Source: Podarcis pityusensis (lineage: Eukaryota). Taken from it: 64,000 nt of DNA. Under the pieces are notes generated by a model. It saw nothing but the letters and a program-made list of their open reading frames with translations. It made no database searches and was not told where the DNA came from. The position numbers were made by a program, and so were the translations under genes. Shown piece after piece: positions 3,665 to 57,200 of the stretch (the stretch's first letter is position 1; each line of letters begins with the position of its first letter). Location of the stretch: the NCBI GenBank assembly GCA_964106645.2, contig OZ067044.1; one strand, written 5' to 3'.

Positions 3665-4072
3665 TGTGATGGGACGATGAGCTGCTTGTGTGTAAAATCC
3701 TAGTCCCTCAGAGTTTGGTCAAGTTTGCAAACCTCTGTCTGTAACGGAGCCCCTTAAACATGGCTCCGTCAGTCGCTGGCAGATTCCGACAGTGGTTGCT
3801 TTCGGAATCGCTTCCAACATAAAAGCTCCTTAACGGAAACACGTCTTCTGGACTCTCTGCGTGACAGTTTCCGGCGAGGAGTGGGTGTCCCTACAGGAGG
3901 TCCTGAAACCTCCCCACTGTTTTCGCTGGAAGTGTCTCTGAGCCATCCCTCCAGCTCCCTTTCCCTCAGCCCAGCTCCTCTCCCCCTACTGGTTCCCTCT
4001 TCAGCTGCTGAGTCTCTCCCAACCTGTGTGAGCCCTTTCACTTCCCTTCCTTCCGATGGCAGTTCCCTGACA
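3665..4072 (-). repeat. 3' LTR of the Gypsy element
   Basis: tgtgatggg...tccctgaca, identical to 7002-7409. Confidence 0.96.
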
Positions 4073-6744
4073 TCCACCTCCCCTCCAGGGCCCCCTTCAT
4101 CCCCTCTCGCCCCCTCCTCTACGGGCAGTGAGGAGGCAAAACCCCGGAATGAACTTCCTTCATCTTCCGATGTCCCGAACACTTCTCTCCACCTGTTGCG
4201 GTTCCTGGTCTCGAAGTACTCCTCCTCCTCAGAGTCCATCTCCCCTTCCCCTTCCGATTCCGAGAATCCTTCCAACTCCTCCTCCTCATCGGTGGTCCCA
4301 AAGTATTCCCTCCGGAACCTCTCCACAGGCTGAGGTTTCCTTGGGAACCTTTGATGGAACGTTTCTATCAATACCTCGTCATTGATATCTTCTGCCATTA
4401 CCCAAGTGTTTTCTGACTCCGGTTCTCCTTCCCACGCTACCAAATACTCCACCTGATCCCCCTTCCATCTGGCGTCGAGGATTTCTGCCACATGGCTGCT
4501 GCATTCCCTTTCTTCTATGACCGGTCCCCGAGTGGCCATCCCTTCTCGTCCCCCCTCATACGGTGACAGTAACGACCTGTGAAATACTGGGTGCAGTTTC
4601 ATGTGGTTGGGTAACCGGAGCCTGAAAGCCACTGGGTTGACCTGTTGAATGACCTCAAAGGGACCCAATCTCCTGGGTCTTAATTTCTTACAACCTCCTT
4701 TGAACGGCAACCCTTGGGTTGACAGCCACACCCTATCTCCCACCCTTATGGTTTCACCTTCCCTTCGGTTCTTGTCTGCCTGCCTCTTGTATTCTTCCTT
4801 CGCCCTTTCTAAGTTGAGTTGGAGCTGACGATGGATTGCTTCCATTTCTTCTACAAAATGCTCGGCTGCCGGGACACCCCATCTCTCCCCTTCTCCCCCT
4901 GGGAAAGCCCTGGGATGACACCCATAATTAGCCAAGAAGGGGCTCATCCCTGTGGACACATTCTCGGCATTGTTGTAGGCAAATTCCGCCAGCGCCAACT
5001 TTTCTACCCAGTCATTCTCTCTGTCATTGACATAACACCTCAGGTATTGCTGGAGGACCCCGTTTGCTCTTTCCGCCTGCCCGTTGGTTTCAGGGTGCCG
5101 GGCAGTCGAAAAGTTGACCTCCACCTGCAGTAAGCTCATGAGCTTCCTCCAGAACCTGGAAGTAAATTGTTTTCCTCGGTCTGAGACCACCCTCAATGGC
5201 ACCCCGTGCAACCTAAAAATGTGTTCTACAAATAACTTCGCTGTCTCTTCCGCCGTGACTGCATGCGAGCAGGCTACAAAGTGGCACATCTTTGTTAGTA
5301 GGTCTACCACCACCATGATGGCTGTTTTCCCCTTGGACTTCGGCAGATCAGTCATAAAATCTATCGACACTGCCTCCCAAGGTCGTTCTGGGGTTGGTAA
5401 GGGTTCTAATAGCCCCGCCGGTGCCCGCCTCTCCCCTTTGGCTCGCTGGCATTGCTCACACCCTCTTACATACTCCCGTACATCTTCCCTCACCTTAGGC
5501 CACCAAAATTCCCTGGTGACCAACCACATGGTTTTGTGTTGTCCAAAATGCCCCGCCGTGGGGCTGTCGTGCAACTGCTTGAGTACCCTCCCCCTTAAGT
5601 CTCCTTCAGGGATATACAGTGCCCCTTTGTAATACAAAGCTCCATTTCTTTCCTCGAAACCCCCTGGTTCCTCTCCCTCACCCCTAAGACCTCTGAGCTT
5701 ATTCTGGGCGTATTCATCATTCTCTGTTTCCTCTACCAGTTCTCTTTGTCCCACCAATGCCGCCCCACACACCCAGCGGTCCTCTGGAATGACATGTCTC
5801 TCTTCGTCCAGCACCGCCTGGACCTTGCCGGGATCCATGGCCAATCCCTTGTCTGACAGGCGATACCCCAGGAATTCCACCTCCTTGGTATGAAACTGAC
5901 ACTTCTCCAGTTTCACCCACAGCTGGTTGGCTTGCAGCCTGCTCAACACTTCTCTGACGTCTCTCACATGCTGCTCCTCATTCTCAGAATACACCAACAC
6001 GTCGTCTAAGAAGGCCACACAATTCTTGTAAAGCAAAGGCCCCAGGACGTGGTTCATAAACGATTGAAAGCACGCGGAGCCTCCTTGTAGGCCGAAGGGC
6101 ATAACTAAATATTCAAATGCCCCCAAAGGGGTGAACATGGTGGTTTTCCATTCATCCCCCTTCCTTATTCGTATCAGGTTGTACGCCCCCCTTAGGTCCA
6201 GTTTAGTAAAAATCTTTCCCTTCCTGACCCTTGTCAAAATGTCGTCAATCCTGGGCATAGGGAAAGCCACTGGTTCTGACACTGCATTTAAGGCCCTGAA
6301 GTCACACACAAGCCTCGGCTTGTTCGTGTTTTTTTTATCCACAAAAAACACTGGGCTGCCCCCCACCGCCCTGGACTCTCTGATGAACCCTCTCTTCAGG
6401 TTCTTGTCAATGAACTCTCTTAGCTCCTGCATCTCTCTGTCTGACATGGCGTACAGCTTGCCTACAGGGAGCTGTGCCCCAGGGAGTAAATTGATTTGAC
6501 AGTCAAAGGGTCTATGCGGGGGTAATTGGTCAGCTTCCCTTTCGCTGAAGACGTCGCGGAGATCTGCGTATTGTCGTGGTACCTTCACGTTCTCCGTTAC
6601 TTCAGTCCCTGCTAGGGTGGCTTGGGCCCCTGCCAAACCCTTTCCCTCTTTGCAGTGTTCTAAGCAATGTGCTGAACCAAAAGAAACCACTCTCTGATGC
6701 CAGCCCACCAGCGGATCATGTAACGCTAGCCAGCTCATCCCCAA
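3769..6744 (-). CDS. pol: Gypsy Pol remnant (991 aa): protease C-terminal tail, RT, RNase H deleted in frame, integrase (HHCC, DDE, GPF), chromodomain, acidic/basic tail
   Basis: ILGMSWL..HDP (PR end); FTKLDLRGAYN, MPFGL, FLDD (RT); HDSPTAGH...CEQC, IDFMTDLP, SDRGKQF, GQAERAN, RLGPF (IN); EYLVAWEG..ENTW (chromo). Confidence 0.93.
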   Translation of the reverse strand: MGMSWLALHDPLVGWHQRVVSFGSAHCLEHCKEGKGLAGAQATLAGTEVTENVKVPRQYADLRDVFSEREADQLPPHRPFDCQINLLPGAQLPVGKLYAMSDREMQELREFIDKNLKRGFIRESRAVGGSPVFFVDKKNTNKPRLVCDFRALNAVSEPVAFPMPRIDDILTRVRKGKIFTKLDLRGAYNLIRIRKGDEWKTTMFTPLGAFEYLVMPFGLQGGSACFQSFMNHVLGPLLYKNCVAFLDDVLVYSENEEQHVRDVREVLSRLQANQLWVKLEKCQFHTKEVEFLGYRLSDKGLAMDPGKVQAVLDEERHVIPEDRWVCGAALVGQRELVEETENDEYAQNKLRGLRGEGEEPGGFEERNGALYYKGALYIPEGDLRGRVLKQLHDSPTAGHFGQHKTMWLVTREFWWPKVREDVREYVRGCEQCQRAKGERRAPAGLLEPLPTPERPWEAVSIDFMTDLPKSKGKTAIMVVVDLLTKMCHFVACSHAVTAEETAKLFVEHIFRLHGVPLRVVSDRGKQFTSRFWRKLMSLLQVEVNFSTARHPETNGQAERANGVLQQYLRCYVNDRENDWVEKLALAEFAYNNAENVSTGMSPFLANYGCHPRAFPGGEGERWGVPAAEHFVEEMEAIHRQLQLNLERAKEEYKRQADKNRREGETIRVGDRVWLSTQGLPFKGGCKKLRPRRLGPFEVIQQVNPVAFRLRLPNHMKLHPVFHRSLLSPYEGGREGMATRGPVIEERECSSHVAEILDARWKGDQVEYLVAWEGEPESENTWVMAEDINDEVLIETFHQRFPRKPQPVERFRREYFGTTDEEEELEGFSESEGEGEMDSEEEEYFETRNRNRWREVFGTSEDEGSSFRGFASSLPVEEGARGDEGGPGGEVDVRELPSEGREVKGLTQVGRDSAAEEGTSRGRGAGLRERELEGWLRDTSSENSGEVSGPPVGTPTPRRKLSRRESRRRVSVKELLCWKRFRKQPLSESASD
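4073..4086 (-). promoter_or_regulatory. polypurine tract of the Gypsy element
   Basis: Sense GGAGGGGAGGTGGA directly before the 3' LTR. Confidence 0.85.
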
Positions 6745-6956
6745 TATAATGGGAGCTCCTCCCCAAACTTCTGCACCAATCCTGGTACCTTTCTGACGAG
6801 CTGGGTGTCTTTCCCCTTTTTGTCTGCATCCTGAGCCCTCCTCTCCTCAAGCCTCGCCGTCTGCAGCGCTAGCTGGACCTCCAACACCCGGTACCTTTCT
6901 TCCAGGCTTGGACCCGCTCCAGCTCCTGCTTCTCCGGTTCCGGCTGGGTTGCTCAT
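6735..6956 (-). pseudogene. gag: truncated gag N-terminus of the Gypsy element, joined out of frame to the end of protease by a deletion near 6760
   Basis: ATG about 45 nt downstream of the 5' LTR; coiled-coil-like LEERYRVLEVQL; sequence switches to the GAPIILGMSW protease frame at ~6760. Confidence 0.75.
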
Positions 6957-6988
6957 GATGCCTTCTCCTGCACAAGCTGCTCACGAAG

Positions 6989-6999
6989 ACTGTCGGAAT
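6989..6999 (-). promoter_or_regulatory. self-priming primer-binding site (Tf1-type)
   Basis: Sense ATTCCGACAGT, 2 nt downstream of the 5' LTR, is the exact complement of sense ACTGTCGGAAT within the LTR (7120-7130); no TGG tRNA-type PBS. Confidence 0.85.
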
Positions 7000-7001
7000 G
7001 C

Positions 7002-7409
7002 TGTGATGGGACGATGAGCTGCTTGTGTGTAAAATCCTAGTCCCTCAGAGTTTGGTCAAGTTTGCAAACCTCTGTCTGTAACGGAGCCCCTTAAACATGG
7101 CTCCGTCAGTCGCTGGCAGATTCCGACAGTGGTTGCTTTCGGAATCGCTTCCAACATAAAAGCTCCTTAACGGAAACACGTCTTCTGGACTCTCTGCGTG
7201 ACAGTTTCCGGCGAGGAGTGGGTGTCCCTACAGGAGGTCCTGAAACCTCCCCACTGTTTTCGCTGGAAGTGTCTCTGAGCCATCCCTCCAGCTCCCTTTC
7301 CCTCAGCCCAGCTCCTCTCCCCCTACTGGTTCCCTCTTCAGCTGCTGAGTCTCTCCCAACCTGTGTGAGCCCTTTCACTTCCCTTCCTTCCGATGGCAGT
7401 TCCCTGACA
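7002..7409 (-). repeat. 5' LTR of the Gypsy element
   Basis: Identical to 3665-4072; followed on the minus strand by the PBS and the gag ATG. Confidence 0.96.
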
Positions 7410-7760
7410 TCCGAGCTTACTTTCACATGGAGCTGGGCTGGGAAGCAAGCAAAGGCACAAGATCTTGCCATTCCACAGCCAGCAATGAAAACATTCTCAT
7501 TACCTGGAATTTGCCACCCACTACTATTCTGAGAAGCATGCAGCCAGTTTACTATGTGTTCAGCAGGCCTTCCTCACCACTTTTTAATATATTTATCCTG
7601 CGAATTCTGGTTTAAGCCAGTAAATAAGGAATACACAAGAGCTTCTATGGACCCAAAGATGAACAGTGGGCTAAGGTTTTATGTATTGATTCTAAACAAT
7701 AGATTCTTGTGTGCCCGTGCACTGAACATGTATATCCATTATTCATACATCCACTGAACA

Positions 7761-47830: not shown

Positions 47831-50651
47831 TTCAATATCATTGGCTCTATCTTGCACCTCAAACTTATCTCCTGGTTTTTCCTGACTTACAGTGTAATCC
47901 TAACCATGTCTACTCAAAAGTTTGTCCTATTAGCTTCAAAGAGGTGTTCTTCCAGGAAAGTAGGGTTAGGATTGTAATCTTATTCTTTGTCCCCAATGTT
48001 CCTGGCTCACTTCAGAAAGCCACCCATGGCTCAGCCCTCACACCTATGCATACATTTCTGATCAATAAAATCAGATCTTTATTTTTACATTTCTGATCAT
48101 TCAACCATTATAATATACAGTATATTAATTGTTCCTCTTCCCCCTGCCTGGCATGTGCAAACTTCTGGAACTCATGTTTGCAGCAAGCTGATTATTTCAA
48201 TAAACATTAACAAAGTAACATACAACCTGGAAATCATGTAAACACTATGAAAAATGCTATATTGTATAGAATACAATTAATGAATGCAACTAAAATTGCA
48301 ATAATTCAGATGGATCATGGATAGTTTGAGCAATTATAATTTGATCAACTATAATTTGATAGCCAAGGAACTCTTGAATATAAGAAAGTTTTCATCTGGA
48401 GTAAGGAAAAGGGAAGTTCTCCCTAGGCTGAGAGTCCAGAGACAGATGCAGTCATGGAAAGGGTCCTCTCTTTGTGCCCCATTCAGTAAGAACTAACACA
48501 AAGCAAGGCTTTTCATTCCAATTTGAGAGGTAATAGTAGGCATTCTTTATGGATCTCAATAGGTACTCAAGTGAAGAAGCAGAAAAACAAAACAAAAGTC
48601 ATATTGGCATTACCTCTATATCTTAAGGAACAGGCAAAGAATAAGTTGTCTTTTCCAGTGAAGGCATTGCCTACACTACATCATCGTACTGCAGGACAAG
48701 AGCTAACACTATCAAATAATATAGCCAGATCACATAAGAAGGAGCATAATTTTACGATCAGCATTTTGCAGTTTACAATCTGTTAAATGTCAGCCTTAAA
48801 AAGTTATGACTGACATTGCACCCTAGCTTTGAATGGATAAGAATTGCTTCTCTAGCTTCAGATATGACACAATAATGCTTCCCATTCAACATTTCTATAG
48901 TAAAGAACTGATTTCTCATAAGGTGTCAAAGAAATAAAGGAGAGAGTACTGTATCACTCTCTTCCCCCTACAAAAGCCACATGACTTTGAATGGAAAGAT
49001 GTTGGAGAGAGAGGAAGAGACTGAAGCAAGAAAGGGAACAGGATATGGATATGGATAACAATAAGGTGAATAATAGCTGTATCCTTTCTCCCTCCAAAAC
49101 CACACTATCCAATCCAACAATTCAGCCTAATGCTATAATACAGGTGTCACTTTAATGCTGATCCAAATCCATTGCTTTGAATATTGGGAAGCTGGCACAT
49201 TTGATTTTCTGAATTCTTTTTAAAAAAACTGTTGTAATTCCCCTTTAAGGCATTACAGCAAATTTTATCTTGTTAATTGACTTTCCATATGCTAATCATG
49301 TTACACCACATTAAGTAATGCACTAATTGGCTTTAATGCTCTCACTTAGTGTGAAAAAAATGTGGCACACATAGGAACGTACAGACACATTTGTATAAGC
49401 AACAAACCTTTTGTACACGAAAGGTGTTAAACAGGAGTGAGGAGTGCCCATGGCTGTGGGACAGAAGTAACAGTGGGGAAAACATGAAAAAGTTGCACTG
49501 CACTTCTTGGACAGTTCTCTACTGCTGGATTCTTTGGGTTCTTTTACTCCAGGGTACAGGGAAAGTTAGCACCTTAATTAGACATTAGAGGAAATACATT
49601 GGATGCCTGGGAGGAGTAATTATGGTTTGAATTTATACAAGGCAATCATCTTTAGGTTGTGCCTACTATTACACTGGCACTTGGACAGTGCTATAAAATG
49701 GAACAGCCATGCTACAGCACGGAACTCTGTGCACAGCCTGGTGACAATCAGAAACATGAAGGAAGCTGAGCATTTTCGTGGATCTGGTTTCCAGTGGCCC
49801 CAAGACACTGTATCTGTATATCTAGCAGGTGCTCCCAAAATCAAAATATTAAGCTACCATGTGTGCACTCTTGACCAAGAACCCATTTCCATCTTTTGCA
49901 TCTTATCTTTCAACACATTTCCTTTTATAAACCCAGAGAGTTGCAATAATTGTGAATCTCAACCTTAAATCCTGAACAACCACCCAGATTTGCATATCAC
50001 CACATAGAAGCAGGTTTTCACATGTCAGCTAAACACCAGGCGGAGTGCATAAATCTGAGCACACTGGATCAGGAATTGTGAGTGCAGCATCCAACATATG
50101 AGCTATGTACATAGGGTACAGAGTTGTTGATGCACATACAATGCATGAGGTGTCCCTGTGACCTTTCCATCTGACTTCTGATACAAATGGGACTGTTTGT
50201 TCCCATATGGCATGAGGTCACACATAATGTTATGAACAGCAAAATTTGCAGCATGGTGTTGTGCTCAATTATCTCTGGACTAAGACCTGAAATGTATCTG
50301 TATGAACCTGAACAACATTAAATGGAATTACTGTTGTTGTATGCTTTGGGGTAATTCCAAGTATTTATCTTTGTGCCAAGTGACTTTTAAATTTCTTCCC
50401 AATAGAAGATACCATAGGAGTACATAGAACAGCCTGTTATGTCAATTTTAAAACAGAATAGCTTACCAACTGGGGGGTTGAGAATCAGAAGAAACTTTTA
50501 CTTCTTTTGCAAGTTTATCTGAGTTGAGCCCTGCAGCAAAGTTGAGAATTGGAATTTAGAGGGGGCGGGGCCCTTGCAAAAGGCTTGCTCGTTGCTGATT
50601 CAGGTACCGAAGTCTGAGGAGGCTCCGCGGGCTGCTGGTCTCCTGCTGCCG

Positions 50652-50988
50652 TGTGGGGATGCAATAAAAAAATAGCACCCTTGTGCAAGATTGTGCAAGA
50701 GGAAGCATCTGCTGACTTGTTCCCCCACACGCCTGGGTCAGTGTCGCGCTGCCTAACCGCAAAGCTTACGCGGCTGTCATGCTGTCTGGTAGAGAAGTTA
50801 TTCTAAGAAATGCAAACCCTAGCTGTTTTCCACCCGAGTGCTACACGTGTATATGCAACATGATGTAATGTGCGCAAGGCTAATAAACATGCAAGGCTGC
50901 TGGGGGAGAGAGCTCACTCCTTGCTTAAACCTTCACCCATGACTCCTCGTCATTTTTCCTCCGCACCTGGTGGGCTGGTTTCCCGACA
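50652..50988 (+). repeat. ERV 5' LTR
   Basis: tgtggggatg...ttcccgaca, identical to 53866-54202. Confidence 0.96.
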
Positions 50989-50990
50989 AA

Positions 50991-51008
50991 TGGTGCCTCG
51001 TGTGATTG
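50991..51008 (+). promoter_or_regulatory. primer-binding site resembling elongator tRNA-Met
   Basis: TGGTGCCTCGTGTGA vs TGGTGCCCCGTGTGA (complement of the vertebrate elongator tRNA-Met 3' end, recalled from memory); 14/15 match, last 3 nt of the 18-mer diverge. Confidence 0.7.
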
Positions 51009-51104
51009 CCTGAACGGCTTCCAGGACGCGTGCTGTCAAAGACGGTCCTTCCTGCTACTCACCCGCCCGGCTGTGGCTTAAGGCGCCTTCTCATCTTCGG
51101 ATCC

Positions 51105-51113
51105 CCGGTGAGT
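51105..51113 (+). promoter_or_regulatory. ERV major splice donor
   Basis: CCG|GTGAGT in the leader, upstream of the gag ATG. Confidence 0.6.
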
Positions 51114-51134
51114 AGCTATTTTTCTATTTTTATC

Positions 51135-52523
51135 ATGGGTTCTGCGCTCTCTAACCCTCAGAAACAATTTTTAAAAGACATGCAGCACCTCCTTCAGGAA
51201 AATAAACAGCAAGTACCTGAAGGTGATCTAATTGCATTGATTCTGGCCATAGATGAACATTGTCCATGCTTCCCTGAGGAGGGGACGTGGGAAATTCCAG
51301 CCTGGGATAGGATTGGCAACCACTTTCATGGCCATGGCCGCATAAATGTTCACGTCCTCAGTGCCTGGGCTAAAGTCCGTGGCTGCATGGCAACTCTTAC
51401 GCCCAAAAACATCCTCTTGGCTTCGTTGCAACCACAACAAAAAACAGTCCTGAATATGCCTTTCATATATCCGGCTGCACCGCTTCTACCACCACCTTTT
51501 ACTCCGCCACGACCACCAGATTATCAGCCTCCGCCGACGCCACTGGGGACTGCAATTAAACAAGCAGCCCCCCTCTTAGGTCTTTCATCTGGCACGCCTG
51601 TGGCTAAAGTCATACTGCTCCCTGCGGACGCCACAACTCCTACAGATACCCCCTTAATTGCTGCTGCAATGCCTCTCACAGCTCAGCGCCCTACATTAAA
51701 AATGACACTGGGTGGACGTGAGGTAGAGGGGGTTCTAGATACAGGGGCAGACGTTACTGTGATTGCTAAACAAGACTGGCCTTCCAAATGGCCCACAAAG
51801 GCAGCTGCCCAAGTTTTGGGTGTCGGGGGAGAAACCCCAGCTTGTCAAAGCCTCCACCCAAATGATATCCTTGTGGCTGCGAAGCACATATCAGTGGAAT
51901 TATTAAGAGACCTTACATCTGCTCTGACAGATTTTGGACTGTGTATTGCCCCAGATAAGGTTCAGCAAACTTTGCCTATGTTATATCTTGGACATAAATT
52001 GACACAACAAGCTGCCATTCCGGTTGTTCCCCAATTGTCTTTTCCTGCCCGCCTAAGGCTGGTTGACCTTCAACAACTTTTGGGACACCTGAATTGGATA
52101 AAGAATTACCTTAATCTGCCTACTAGCACCTTGTCACCATTGTTTTCTGCCTTACAAGGACACAACCTACCTGGAGAAGTCATCCCAGTTACAGAAGAAA
52201 TGCTACAAGCCTTACAACAGGTTAATGCTTTATTAAGAGAACGAATGGTGGATCGCATAGACACTCTGCACAATGTGCAGTTATCCTTGGCAATTTTTTC
52301 CACACCTTTGCTGCCTACAGCCATTCTCTACTCACAGAAATCGGCTGCCCCTTCGGGTGTCAACATTGTGGAATGGATCCACCTTCCGCATAAAGCCCTC
52401 TCTGGACTGGACATTGAAAAAAATTTACTTGCCTTTTTCACTCACAGAAACACAACACCTGATTTCCACCTCCGTGGCTACTCAAGTAGCACTTGTGGAT
52501 TTTTTGGGAACCATCACGCATAA
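51135..52523 (+). CDS. gag-pro-pol: in-frame chimeric ORF: Gag MA and proline-rich region, dUTPase-like stub, protease N-half, RT C-terminal palm/thumb/connection
   Basis: MGSALS (myristoylatable Gly2); CPCFPEEGT..W.RIG (beta-type MA); VLDTGADVTVI...WP..WP (PR); DILVAA, IAPDKVQ, YLG, LQQLLGHLNW (RT); no CA, NC or YxDD. Confidence 0.8.
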   Translation: MGSALSNPQKQFLKDMQHLLQENKQQVPEGDLIALILAIDEHCPCFPEEGTWEIPAWDRIGNHFHGHGRINVHVLSAWAKVRGCMATLTPKNILLASLQPQQKTVLNMPFIYPAAPLLPPPFTPPRPPDYQPPPTPLGTAIKQAAPLLGLSSGTPVAKVILLPADATTPTDTPLIAAAMPLTAQRPTLKMTLGGREVEGVLDTGADVTVIAKQDWPSKWPTKAAAQVLGVGGETPACQSLHPNDILVAAKHISVELLRDLTSALTDFGLCIAPDKVQQTLPMLYLGHKLTQQAAIPVVPQLSFPARLRLVDLQQLLGHLNWIKNYLNLPTSTLSPLFSALQGHNLPGEVIPVTEEMLQALQQVNALLRERMVDRIDTLHNVQLSLAIFSTPLLPTAILYSQKSAAPSGVNIVEWIHLPHKALSGLDIEKNLLAFFTHRNTTPDFHLRGYSSSTCGFFGNHHA

Positions 52524-53825
52524 TCCCCCCTCTGATCCACGCCTGTCTTTTCTTTCTCAAACTGTCTATACTTTAAAAACTGCTCTCTCTCCGACCCCCA
52601 TCCCCTCTGCCCTTACCCTTTTCACTGATGGGTCAAAAACGCGGGGGGTGGTGGCATGGGAGGAGGGTGGAAAATGGAAAACTGAATTTACTGAGCAACA
52701 GAGGTCCGCCCAGCGGGCTGAACTTGCTGCTGTAATCCTTGCCTTTCAACTCTTTCCTGATAAACCTTTTAATTTGCTTGTTGATACATAATATGTGTAT
52801 CGCCTTCTGTCTTCCCTGCCTGTTTCTTATATCACGCCTGCGTTAGATGCTGATTTGTTTGTTCTTTTTTCTACCTTGCAGTATCTTATTCAAGAACGCC
52901 GTCATCCTTTTTATGTTGCACACCTTCGTTCCCACACCAATCACCCAGGGTTTTTGGCTCAGGGAAATGCCTTGGCAGACGCTGCACTGCGATCTGAAGT
53001 GTTTTCCTTGTTTTCTGACCCTATTCTCTCTCATTCTACCTTTCACCAGCCTGCTAAAGTTTTGGCAAAAATGTTTAAAATCCCTATTGCACAGGCACGA
53101 GACATTGTCTCTCAATGTTCTATCTGTTCTAAGGCTCCAACCATGATTCCCTTTGATGCGGTGAACCCTAGGGGTACGTCCCCTCTTGCGGTTTGGCAGA
53201 TGGATGTTACTCACACCCCTCTGCTCGCACCATTTTCAAAAGTTCACCTGACAGTGGACACCTCATCTGGATTTATCTGGGCCACCCCATTGAAGGGTGA
53301 GACCGCTCGTCACGTCATTCAGCACACCCTGCGCTGTTTTGCTGTGATGGGTAAGCCACAAAGCATTAAAACGGATAATGGCCCAGCCTATATTTCCTCT
53401 CAGTTTTCATCCTTTTGTGATTTATGGAATGTGAAATTAATCCATGGTTTGCCTTTCAATTCAACAGGACAGGCGATTGTGGAGAGGGCGCACCTGACCT
53501 TCAAGACTCTGCTGTCCAAACAACTTGGAGGTCGAAGTGCCCCCTCCGCCGAGATTCCTTCAATTGTGCATACTGTTTTATTCACCCTTAACCATAATTT
53601 GTATCCCATAATAGGGAATATACACCGGCTGAAATTCATTTTCGAAAAGCAGAGCCTTTGGCTCGACCTCTTGTATCTTACAGACAGCTACCTGATCCAA
53701 CATGGCATGGTCCTGTGCCACTCATCTCCTGGGGACGCGGTTACGCGGCAGTGGACCTGGATGGACGGCCTACCTGGTTACCAGCGCGCTGTGTGCGACC
53801 CTGGCGAGCTTCTGCCTCGGAATGA
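52424..53825 (+). pseudogene. pol: ERV pol 3' part (connection, RNase H, integrase) with one stop and frameshifts
   Basis: LFTDGS, SAQRAEL, VDT*YVY (TAA at 52789-52791); H..FH...CSIC, WQMDVTH, KTDNGPAY, GQAIVERAH; frameshift near 53600 into WHGPVPLISWGRGYA...WLPARCV, TGA at 53823-53825. Confidence 0.9.
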
Positions 53826-53846
53826 AATTTATGACTCTGATTAAAT

Positions 53847-53865
53847 AAAATAAAAAAGGAGGGCA
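53847..53865 (+). promoter_or_regulatory. ERV polypurine tract
   Basis: aaaataaaaaaggagggca directly before the 3' LTR. Confidence 0.85.
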
Positions 53866-54202
53866 TGTGGGGATGCAATAAAAAAATAGCACCCTTGTGC
53901 AAGATTGTGCAAGAGGAAGCATCTGCTGACTTGTTCCCCCACACGCCTGGGTCAGTGTCGCGCTGCCTAACCGCAAAGCTTACGCGGCTGTCATGCTGTC
54001 TGGTAGAGAAGTTATTCTAAGAAATGCAAACCCTAGCTGTTTTCCACCCGAGTGCTACACGTGTATATGCAACATGATGTAATGTGCGCAAGGCTAATAA
54101 ACATGCAAGGCTGCTGGGGGAGAGAGCTCACTCCTTGCTTAAACCTTCACCCATGACTCCTCGTCATTTTTCCTCCGCACCTGGTGGGCTGGTTTCCCGA
54201 CA
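53866..54202 (+). repeat. ERV 3' LTR
   Basis: Identical to the 5' LTR; preceded by the PPT. Confidence 0.96.
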
Positions 54203-57200
54203 CTGCCGGTTGCCCAAGATACATCCCCTGTTCTGCCAGGAGGAGGAAGCAGATGACTGGAAGGAGGAGGTGAACATCATGAAAGACGGAAAGGAGGAGG
54301 TGGTGAAGATCAGATAGATTTTTGTGAGACCATGCGACCAGGGGATGGAGTCCACCGATACCAACGTGGATGGCAACGGCAGCAGTGAAACCAGCAGCTT
54401 GAGCGGAGCTCTTACCTTCCCTCCCATGCCCAGTTCCCCCCTTCCCACAATTCCAAGTGTCTAAATAAACAAATATATGAATAAAAAAAAGAGAGAATTG
54501 GAATTTAAACAATCCTGCTTCTGATGTATGAGAAACATTCAAATGGGAAGCAAAAAATACTTTGGAAAAGAAATAACTTCACACAGCACATAGTTAACTT
54601 ATGGAACTTACTCCCCCAAGGTACTATTTCCATATTTTAACATTAGTAACATGGTTTGTTTACATAGCTTGTAACGGTTTCAGATGGCCCGCTTGTCCAG
54701 GGCTGGTACCATTGTGGGGAAATCTAACAGCACCCCCAATGGCATCAGAAACCATTCAGAGAACAGGACACAAAACATTTTCCTTTTGCAGTGTGCCATT
54801 TCCTTTGTATTAAGATATCATACGCTTTAGTGTGCCTTCTTTTCTGTGTAAAATGGGTGGCAGCCAGAGATTGTGACAGGACTCTCTGATTAAAAGGTTC
54901 AGCAACAGAAGCTGTGTGTCAAGGTAAATATAAACTGAAATAAACAACATCAACAACACCCCCCTCAACCATCTTTAATTCCAGTAGCAGCTTTATTTAT
55001 GGAGAAAGTGTAAAAAACACTTTTCCCCACTGTCATCATAGCATGAGCACAGTGTGTCAAATGATCTTGTGGAAAACTTAAGTCACCTAAACATTAAGGG
55101 TTGCTGGCATCAGCAGAAGTAATAGTATCCCAAACAATTACATTGTCTAGGTTCATGTGAGAACAAGCTTCAGTACTGGAATTCAAATGATAAAAAATGC
55201 AAATGTGGGACCCATTTGTGCCTACACATTTAATGCATAATGGAATAAAACATCTACTTTTGGCTTACATAGCACTTTGCACCTTATCTGCTACCATTAA
55301 AATGCATTAAATGGCACTAATAACGATGCACAATTGACCCGCATGGTGCTGCAGCATTTTCTAATCATCTCCACTTTCTCTCTAAATATGAAGAACAGTA
55401 ATTATCAAACTACTACCTTCAGGCCTTCAGGGTATTAAGAACTAGAAACACATTAATTAGTTTCAACTACATGTTTCACAAACCTGGCCACCAGTGGCTT
55501 CTGCAAAATATGTTAGCCCTTATTTAAAACGTATTTGCTACTGTTAGTTCCAGCTGTGAAAGATTAAAAAATGGCAGAAGAGAAAGAAAGGCCTTTGTCC
55601 CTGCTGGTTGTTTATAACTTAACAGGTCAGAGATTGGTTTTACCAGTTCTAGTTGGCTTTGCAAAAATAAGTTTTTTAAAAAAATCTCCATCATAGCTGC
55701 GTTAACACCCTCTCATGAATAAAAGCAGTTTTCACACAGTGCAAGGTATTTCCACGTGGACTGTGGAGCAGGGATGCACTTTTAGACTCACCACTCCAAA
55801 AAATAGCAACTTTTTTCTGCAGCAACCACAAACTGTGCGTGGTTCTCTGCATAAAGCCCCTGATGCGCAAGCTCCTGGTTGTGTGAGGGGCTCCGTGCAT
55901 TCAGGACTTCCAGTTATGCGGGGCACTTTCTGTTGTAGAGCGCAGCTTCTATGGTGCTTTTGGGTGGTCTTTGACTAAGGGGTTGGGCCACTTCTAAAGT
56001 CTTTAAAAATTGTTACACACCTTCATGGGTGTAGCCAGGATTTTTGTGGGCAGGCCTTTTGTTGGGGAGGGGAGCAGGCCCTCAGTTTGCTACACCCATG
56101 CACACCTTTGCTCTGGGTCCTCACCTCCTTGCAAGTGGGGGGGTGGGGGTTTACTGTGTTGCAACAGAAAATAAAGATCTGCCTTGCTTTGAATGGTTCC
56201 TGCCTCCACTCATTCTTCTCTGACCAATAATGGACTTCCCTTATACTGGGTCCCTTGTTGAGGAGTTGGGCTGTAAATGCCAACCCCAATTTTTTCTTAT
56301 CTCACACCTAATGCAAGGGTGAACATAAGAACACTTGGAGAGAAGGGCACTTGTGAATGTCATCAAACAAACCCTGGCTTCAAATGTTCTGAGTTAGAGG
56401 AAGCACATGTGAGTTCTAGTCATGCTTTCAGCGTATTGCACAAAAAGGAACTTGCCAGGATAGACAGGAAGATAGATATGCAAGCTCTGGACATGGACGC
56501 ACTTTGCACATTTTTTATCTTGGATGGCAAACTGAAGCTGATGGCCTCTCTCTTTTCAATAGGAATCTGATTGCTCTTATCCTTAGCAGGCCCTGCTCTG
56601 CATCTATCCTCCACCCAAATAATCTTCAGCGATTAGGCAAGTTCCTTTTTAACACTGCAAGGCAAGGCCTCCTCTGTCAATCCAAGCTTTGGAAGTCTTT
56701 CAGATTTTTCTTAATGGCATTGTGATGGAAATGAACAATCTTTACTAGAGGGCTTTTGGATGATTTAGTTTTGCCTTATCTTTCCTGATGGTTTACAGGC
56801 AATGTCTCTGTTTCTGTGGATTCTGCTATGATTATTTATTGTATCTGTATGTTCATGTGTGCACATGTGTGCATGTGCATGTTACACTTTTTCAGGCTGT
56901 TTGGTGTGAAATGAACAGAAAACCAGCAGATACTACTTTCAAAATAAACAATTGCTACATGTATAGCAATGTTTCCTACAAGATACACACAGCACCTTTA
57001 AACACAAATTGTGTGCCTTCCCCCAAGTTCTCACATGTATCTGTGTTTACAGGAACACATCTCAGCCATATTTTATGGCTTTGCTGCAGGAAACAGCAGT
57101 AAGTGTAAAGTGGCTTGGGCAACCCAGTCAGCTGAGTGGGGCAAAAGTAATAATGCCACCAACATAGTGTTGGGCAATTGCTGGCTATTTCTCTTAATGT

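Follow-up and report, generated by a model that had tools for sequence, protein, structure and literature searches.

A young, short class II endogenous retrovirus with a fused gag-pro-pol frame, very probably copied in trans in the lizard Podarcis pityusensis

A 64,000-nucleotide stretch of DNA from the lizard Podarcis pityusensis (NCBI GenBank assembly GCA_964106645.2, contig OZ067044.1), referred to here in its full length as the window, carries at positions 50652 to 54202 a 3551-bp endogenous retrovirus (ERV) that is almost certainly a member of a real, young family of short elements mobilised in trans by helpers in the same genome. Our preferred explanation, to which we assign a probability of roughly 0.6, is that the element is a short class II ERV in which gag, pro and pol were joined by two deletions, that it is copied in trans by full-length relatives, and that the joined frame has been kept against decay of its RNA.

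Structure of the element

The element ends in TG...CA and lies in a window without any N. In comparison with a 7.5-kb copy from the same genome it lacks four segments: 1304 bp at ~51585 (the end of the p12-like region, the capsid (CA), the nucleocapsid (NC), the gag stop and the start of pro), 680 bp at 51861 (from the C-terminal half of the protease (PR) to the YxDD motif of the reverse transcriptase (RT)), 72 bp at 52391 (24 codons of the connection) and 1897 bp at 53820 (env and the final 20 codons of the integrase (IN)). It also has one-base indels at 52416 and 53604 and a stop codon at 52789-52791. Pfam matches were found to the matrix protein (MA; Gag_p10), a truncated aspartyl protease, the RT thumb, RNase H and three integrase domains, and there was no Pfam match in the element to capsid, zinc finger, RT core or env. 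Genes needed for replication are therefore missing, and the long terminal repeats (LTRs), primer-binding site (PBS), leader and polypurine tract (PPT) are retained. The features are as follows.

50646-50651, no strand: left copy of the target-site duplication (TSD); single in the parent sequence
50652-50988, plus strand: 5' LTR, 337 bp, of the type of the youngest full-length copies (sequence comparison)
50991-51008, plus strand: PBS for elongator-type tRNA-Met(CAT), 14/18 bases; all 18 match in one family copy
51135-52523, plus strand: fused frame from the gag ATG, 462 aa, with MA (Gly2 present), p12-like region, N-terminal half of PR with DTG, RT thumb and part of the connection; 920 aa in unbroken sisters
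51585-51595, plus strand: gag-to-pro junction, formed in frame by a 1304-bp deletion that is bounded by 10-bp repeats; 31 loci
51861-51862, plus strand: pro-to-RT junction, formed in frame by a 680-bp deletion; present at 30 loci and also spanned by a contig from run X7 of organism B
52391-52417, plus strand: deletion of 72 bp that keeps the frame (2 copies) and an extra base in an A run (4 copies) that terminates the fused frame (alignment)
52606-52990, plus strand: RNase H remnant, with the stop 52789-52791 private to the window copy (sister comparison)
53029-53822, plus strand: integrase with Zn finger, core and C-terminal domain (Pfam, alignment); one-base deletion at 53604 (4 short copies); truncated by the env deletion
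53820-53821, plus strand: env deletion junction, 1897 bp; common to the other env-less short copies and 4 capsid-bearing copies
53852-53863, plus strand: PPT (sequence)
53866-54202, plus strand: 3' LTR, a base-for-base copy of the 5' LTR (sequence)
54203-54208, no strand: right copy of the TSD (sequence)
50544-54507, plus strand: host site, a spliced retrocopy of 377 bp that is flanked by a 15-bp TSD (50544-50558 and 54493-54507) and contains the provirus; skipped by contigs of organisms C-F

These features agree well with an original prediction made from the sequence alone, which had described a 3.55-kb, env-less element with a perfect 6-bp TSD, zero LTR divergence, a nonsense codon at 52789 and frameshifts near 52420 and 53600. 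The TSD is genuine, as judged by the parent of the landing sequence, in which the hexamer is single and the sequence runs unbroken across the site. The three interior deletions that had been proposed are also all present. However, the suggestion that one of them had removed most of a dUTPase has to be revised, since the segment before PR, in the full-length copies included, had no Pfam or PDB match, a best BLASTP E of 0.12 and no motif 5; judged from its sequence, it would be no more than the decayed likeness of a dUTPase, also in full-length copies.

A family of short copies beside full-length helpers

The 1.5-Gb genome was searched with the LTR and with the deletion junctions, as the original prediction had recommended. 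Among the best 40 of 140 candidate LTR matches, which were scored, identity was 99-100%, and an exact LTR-PBS pattern occurred at 57 places, 55 of them proviral. A query spanning both inner junctions (best 40 of 96 candidates) gave a full-length match at 30 loci and partial matches from rank 31 on. Three of these loci, on contig C19, have one TSD and flanks in common and thus count as one insertion, giving 28 insertions; the other short copies each have their own TSD. Three short copies retain env despite both inner deletions.

The search for an intact helper was also successful. All 22 of the 22 candidates found with a capsid query were capsid-bearing copies, of which 17 bear env and are 7.2-7.6 kb in length, with all four frames (gag, pro, pol and env) unbroken in 9 of them. 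Another four lack env through the identical 1897-bp deletion, two of them with gag, pro and pol open up to the deletion, and the remaining one is a gag-env fusion (L072, a 3.8-kb copy in which a 3744-bp deletion fuses gag to env in one 982-aa frame). The deletions were found separately as well: the gag deletion alone in one copy and the env deletion alone in four. Excluded from the counts were L090 and L091, as duplicates of L089, and L102 and L105, which are interrupted by later elements (frames of 798 and 947 aa); L073 was omitted from the LTR-pair counts on account of an irregular 5' end, and private one-base indels may include assembly errors.

Lesion-sharing copies therefore stand at separate sites, with their own TSDs, beside full-length copies that are 98-100% identical, as expected for the non-autonomous family that had been predicted. 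The closest of them, L081, lies on another contig with other flanks and another TSD, has equal length and the same indels, and differs from the window copy at 5 of 3551 bases. It reads through at the position matching the window stop, and so the stop is private to the window copy. The proposal that the lesions predate this insertion consequently holds for the deletions and the indels, which recur in other copies, but not for the stop codon.

Several other family members were noted. Copies L123, L124 and L125 are interrupted by later elements of 5.5-6.1 kb with long open frames (LINE-like and Gypsy-like by eye), which implies that several families were active at once. L120 and L121, both on C2, each retain a single end (a 5' piece and a 3' env piece), and their flanks have no common TSD. 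Family insertions are concentrated on contig C19 (38 Mb), with 12 of 51 versus 1.3 expected (P 4e-9) and two of the four found later; this contig may be a W chromosome, serving as a refuge.

Probable copying in trans

A short genome that has no capsid, nucleocapsid or RT active site is likely to be packaged and reverse-transcribed by its full-length relatives, and the mosaic sequence of the window copy points the same way. In 41 diagnostic columns, 19 older short copies are distinguishable from 15 long copies. Here the window copy is of the long type in the LTR, the leader, the first part of MA, an island within the PR remnant, RT through IN and the 3' LTR, and of the short type around the gag junction, at the RT junction and at the env junction, that is, mainly at the deletion joints. 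This mosaic requires at least six template switches between the two types. Consistent with it, LTR and leader-MA trees place the window copy among the long copies, with most short copies separate, and in a tree of the PR island most short copies form a group of their own. Retroviral recombination occurs when two RNAs share one particle, and the patchwork thus argues for co-packaging with full-length copies; the same argument from recombination is made for cattle ERVK in the available text of PMC10924933. As such, we are very confident that the short copies are copied in trans with co-packaging.

Age and insertion site

LTR pairs differed at 26 of 8663 sites (0.30%) in 25 short copies and at 15 of 7460 sites (0.20%) in 22 capsid-bearing copies; in each group 13 pairs were identical. 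The insertion site of the window element is a young retrocopy, 377 bp long and flanked by a 15-bp TSD, from which a 138-bp GT-AG intron has been spliced out and whose parent is a multicopy locus on C6. The window flanks differ by 0.8-1.1% from organism B and by 2.7-4.0% from organisms C-F. In all four runs of organisms C-F, contigs join across the entire retrocopy at flank depth, and the insertion must therefore be younger than the split from those organisms. In organism B a dominant contig of run X7 spans the pro-RT junction, so that the short lineage is shared with that organism. Run X2, with a flank match of 1907/1907 bases, was excluded from this comparison, and the lack of cover of the element in runs X13, X14 and X19 was not taken as absence.

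A joint of positions 50645 and 54203, which might be read as an empty allele, was seen in runs X3, X7, X13 and X14. We rejected that reading, because X13 and X14 show the joint although their contigs skip the retrocopy altogether, and because its depth in X3 and X7 is 4-6 times that of the flanks; the joint therefore stems from the multicopy parent. In a separate observation, run X8 (organism C) contained family pieces over window positions 50796-53836 that were ~98% identical and at ~1/7 of flank depth. These may represent contamination, a pooled sample or low-level infection, which are indistinguishable here.

The fused reading frame

In the full-length copies gag, pro and pol lie in three frames joined by -1 shifts. 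The 1304-bp deletion brings gag and pro into one frame and the 680-bp deletion does the same for pro and pol, each of them crossing a -1 site, and the basic form of the family is therefore a single 920-aa frame in the order MA, p12-like region, half of PR, RT thumb and connection, RNase H and IN. Measured from the gag ATG, the frame extends for at least 790 aa in 15/28 and at least 440 aa in 22/28 two-LTR copies (462 aa in the window), and the ATG and Gly2 are retained in 26/26 short copies. Among 26 independent copies, the breaks common to several copies are four, at codons 452, 797, 845 and 848; seven breaks lie before codon 451, all of them private. A 965-bp gag deletion of separate origin, in the older copy L122, likewise leaves the frame continuing through pro. 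L122 (265-6855) is the oldest copy seen, with 5 LTR differences, and may stand beside the short lineage as a sister or have preceded it.

The in-frame joints and the deficit of early breaks are suggestive only, and on balance we lean slightly towards selection having kept the frame open. How such selection might act on the RNA can be outlined as follows. The two inner deletions would join gag, pro and pol into one translated frame, and full-length copies of the same family would package and reverse-transcribe the short RNA. An early stop in that RNA would expose it to nonsense-mediated decay, while an open frame would favour its survival. In Rous sarcoma virus, according to the available text of PMC2925335, an element behind the gag stop shields the RNA from nonsense-mediated decay. 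The 1304-bp deletion takes out the gag stop and 240 bases behind it, and an out-of-frame joint would, by analogy, leave an unprotected stop ahead of a 2-3 kb tail. RNA survival fits best because the gag deletion removes the region in which Rous sarcoma virus bears its stability element. Translation is likely to help the short RNA survive, and the fusion protein is probably a by-product rather than a source of enzyme.

Several observations weigh against selection on the frame. Two in-frame deletions would arise by chance with a probability of 1/9 (0.11), or up to ~0.18 once the phase of short repeats in this genome (38-44% in phase) is allowed for, and early shared breaks are not significantly depleted (Fisher P 0.19; Poisson P 0.09). 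Frames shorter than 440 aa occur in 6/28 copies, though every one through a private break, and the long copies include two further large deletions, each seen in one copy, that are not in frame. The young lineage of the window (3 copies) spread with the codon-452 break and a tail of at least 1.7 kb, so that decay, if real, must be leaky. In addition, the 3' half contains a shared break in 16/26 copies, at the cost of some or all of IN. Constraint on the residues of the fusion was not detected among variants shared by short copies only (28 non-synonymous to 19 synonymous, versus 97:52 for private variants, P 0.49; pN/pS 0.48 versus 0.61). That comparison has some power, because it does find constraint in the capsid-bearing copies (shared 4:10 versus private 102:47; pN/pS 0.13 versus 0.71, P 0.006). 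The open frame may thus matter while its residues do not, a pattern that agrees best with RNA survival. A tally of 5/7 large deletions in frame (P 0.045 at 1/3) was set aside because it was post hoc, includes single copies, on which selection may not have acted, and may count one origin twice.

Alternative explanations

The best surviving alternative, less probable than selection for RNA survival but to be taken seriously, is that of a plain defective passenger that spreads in trans through its shortness or by escape from silencing, and whose open frame reflects luck and youth. The chance figure for the in-frame pair, the likeness of shared to private variants and the frequent loss of the 3' half are all as expected for such a passenger, and the D-type ERVK of cattle spreads without intact open reading frames (ORFs), as described in the available text of PMC10924933. 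Against it, no shared break was found among 26 shared substitutions in the first 451 codons, versus 2.4 expected, and both the separate gag deletion of L122 and the gag-env deletion are likewise in frame.

Betaretroviral MA is known for co-translational targeting, and it is conceivable, if rather unlikely, that a myristoylated MA heading the nascent fusion brings its own RNA to the assembly site in cis. The invariant ATG and Gly2 fit this, as does the fusion protein of the mouse intracisternal A-particle (IAP) subtype IDelta1, which acts in cis according to what is available of the reviews PMC6466679 and PMC7411935. However, the MA variants shared by short copies only (6 non-synonymous, 2 synonymous) give no indication of constraint, and MA by itself needs no frame through PR and RT.

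It is improbable that the fusion provides extra integrase or RNase H to helper particles. Seven catalytic residues are retained in 26/26 copies, though few losses would be expected anyway, and the ratio of non-synonymous to synonymous shared variants was 7:10 in RNase H and IN versus 21:9 upstream (P 0.07). Conversely, through shared breaks 4 copies have lost RNase H and IN entirely, and 8, 5 and 4 copies the C-terminal part of IN, and the env deletion takes the final 20 IN codons; for the lineage of the window this explanation is already largely refuted.

Finally, the idea that identical LTRs reflect gene conversion or assembly collapse of an old, decayed provirus, which the original prediction had named together with a lack of lesion-sharing copies as the outcome that would undo it, finds a parallel in the three duplicated C19 loci, but is extremely unlikely given that such segmental duplicates make up only 3/30 loci, that the remaining short copies bear their own TSDs, that the sister copy L081 differs at 5 bases and lies on a different contig with different flanks, and that the site is within a retrocopy missing from organisms C-F.

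Classification, primer and env

The best solved match of pol was 7sr6 (E 3e-130), which we take to be the RT of HERV-K, and the best matches of IN were 7usf and 3jca, presumably the IN of mouse mammary tumour virus. On sequence grounds the element is a class II ERV, with RT and IN closest to those of beta-like retroviruses. The nearest named Pol proteins were from turtles, a cobra and the Komodo dragon at 46-54% identity. An RT tree was built from 52 rows (the query and 51 of 120 listed matches), with a midpoint root and without an alpharetrovirus, outgroup, PyERV or named IAP row; in it the RT clustered with reptile sequences (Komodo, turtles, cobra) at a support of 0.998, separately from SRV1, SRV4, a prosimian retrovirus and bird ERVs, and was not nested within mammalian betaretroviruses. 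Gag has a beta-type MA (Gag_p10) and two CCHC fingers, and gag, pro and pol occupy separate frames; the pro frame holds only a decayed likeness of the betaretroviral dUTPase. The env is gamma-type (TLV_coat, an LQNR motif and CX6CC), and its three matches at E 1e-10 or better, at 57-62%, are all lacertid (Podarcis muralis, P. lilfordi and Zootoca vivipara), in keeping with a lacertid host. The betaretrovirus-like label of the original prediction was therefore right as to class II, but judged from these comparisons the family is best described as a reptile class II lineage with a gamma-type env and not a betaretrovirus proper.

Betaretroviruses typically use tRNA-Lys as primer, in difference to the tRNA-Met(CAT) of this family. 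The window PBS matches the genomic tRNA-Met(CAT) at 14/18 bases; the matching base at position 8 is present in 8/55 proviruses, and all 18 match in one. In addition, locus L113 (1456-1554; G000:C6:16810008-16810106) is a 99-bp near-palindrome (90/99) with TG...CA ends and a 6-bp TSD that is composed solely of the U5 end, the PBS and the CCA-ended 3' end of tRNA-Met. It is likely an integrase-inserted fold-back of the primer region, and with it direct evidence of tRNA-Met priming.

Elsewhere in the window, positions 3758-7573 hold a Ty3/Gypsy-like element on the minus strand with repeated ends and a 1025-aa pol frame (3769-6846); its family label was given by eye.

Comparison with known systems and significance

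ETn elements are not known to have coding capacity, and of the two parallels that had been offered for a non-autonomous family, ETn and deleted IAPs, the layout of this family matches the second, in the form of the in-frame gag-pro-pol fusion of IAP IDelta1. In mouse, according to the available text of PMC6466679 and PMC7411935, IDelta1 has a 1.9-kb gag-pol deletion and a fused ORF that is beneficial in cis, requires helper proteins and is the source of most new IAP mutations. The lizard family resembles it, as far as those sources describe it, in being class II and non-autonomous, in having lost ~1.9-2.0 kb of gag-pol, in its one fused gag-pol ORF and in a short form that outnumbers the helper (here 30 loci versus 22). 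It differs in having two deletions (1304 and 680 bp) that leave a 280-bp island with half of PR, in belonging to a reptile lineage and in having helpers with env and a Gly2 MA. Since its RT is only ~44-57% identical to any relative found, there is no descent from IAP: the family is IDelta1-like in layout and possibly in mechanism.

LTRs common to short copies and helpers, and recombination between them, are also features of the cattle ERVK[2-1-LTR] C/D pair, ETn/MusD and recKoRV; those elements, however, replace their centre with foreign DNA, whereas the lizard family consists of pure deletions with a long open frame. In cattle ERVK, as in the lizard, helper-type sequence extends to the deletion edges, but the available text of PMC10924933 describes the cattle D-type as having no intact ORF. 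The full-length copies share with SRV/PyERV, as far as the sources consulted describe them, a beta-type MA, separate gag, pro and pol frames, two CCHC fingers, a class II RT, a 6-bp TSD and a gamma-type env, and differ from SRV in the reptile-clade RT, the tRNA-Met primer, the absence of a recognisable dUTPase and the lacertid env relatives. No description of the family was met in the accessible portions of the literature on squamate class II and non-autonomous ERVs, including PMC3230843 and PMC13568524, with thin coverage of subscription journals. A screen of 48 squamates for invading ERVs (PMC10435555) has no lacertid in its main text, and its supplementary tables may list the full-length form.

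The family represents a fully catalogued, non-mammalian pair of helper and parasite, with ~55 proviruses in one assembly, in mid-expansion. It also extends the record of reptile class II ERVs by a young lineage whose env is lacertid-type and whose primer is tRNA-Met. The reason why IDelta1 beats its helper rests, in the sources available, on one mouse study. With an independent origin and copies that differ only in the place of their frame break, the lizard family makes it possible to ask from natural variation whether RNA survival, a protein effect or luck is responsible. We see an even chance that the trick of IAP IDelta1 has evolved independently in a lizard class II retrovirus whose invasion of the germ line is still under way, as an in-frame-deletion parasite whose translation is selected in cis and whose LTR, leader and pol are refreshed from the current helper, with only the three deletion joints kept. 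If true, this would mean that freeloading retroviral genomes converge on one design across ~300 million years.

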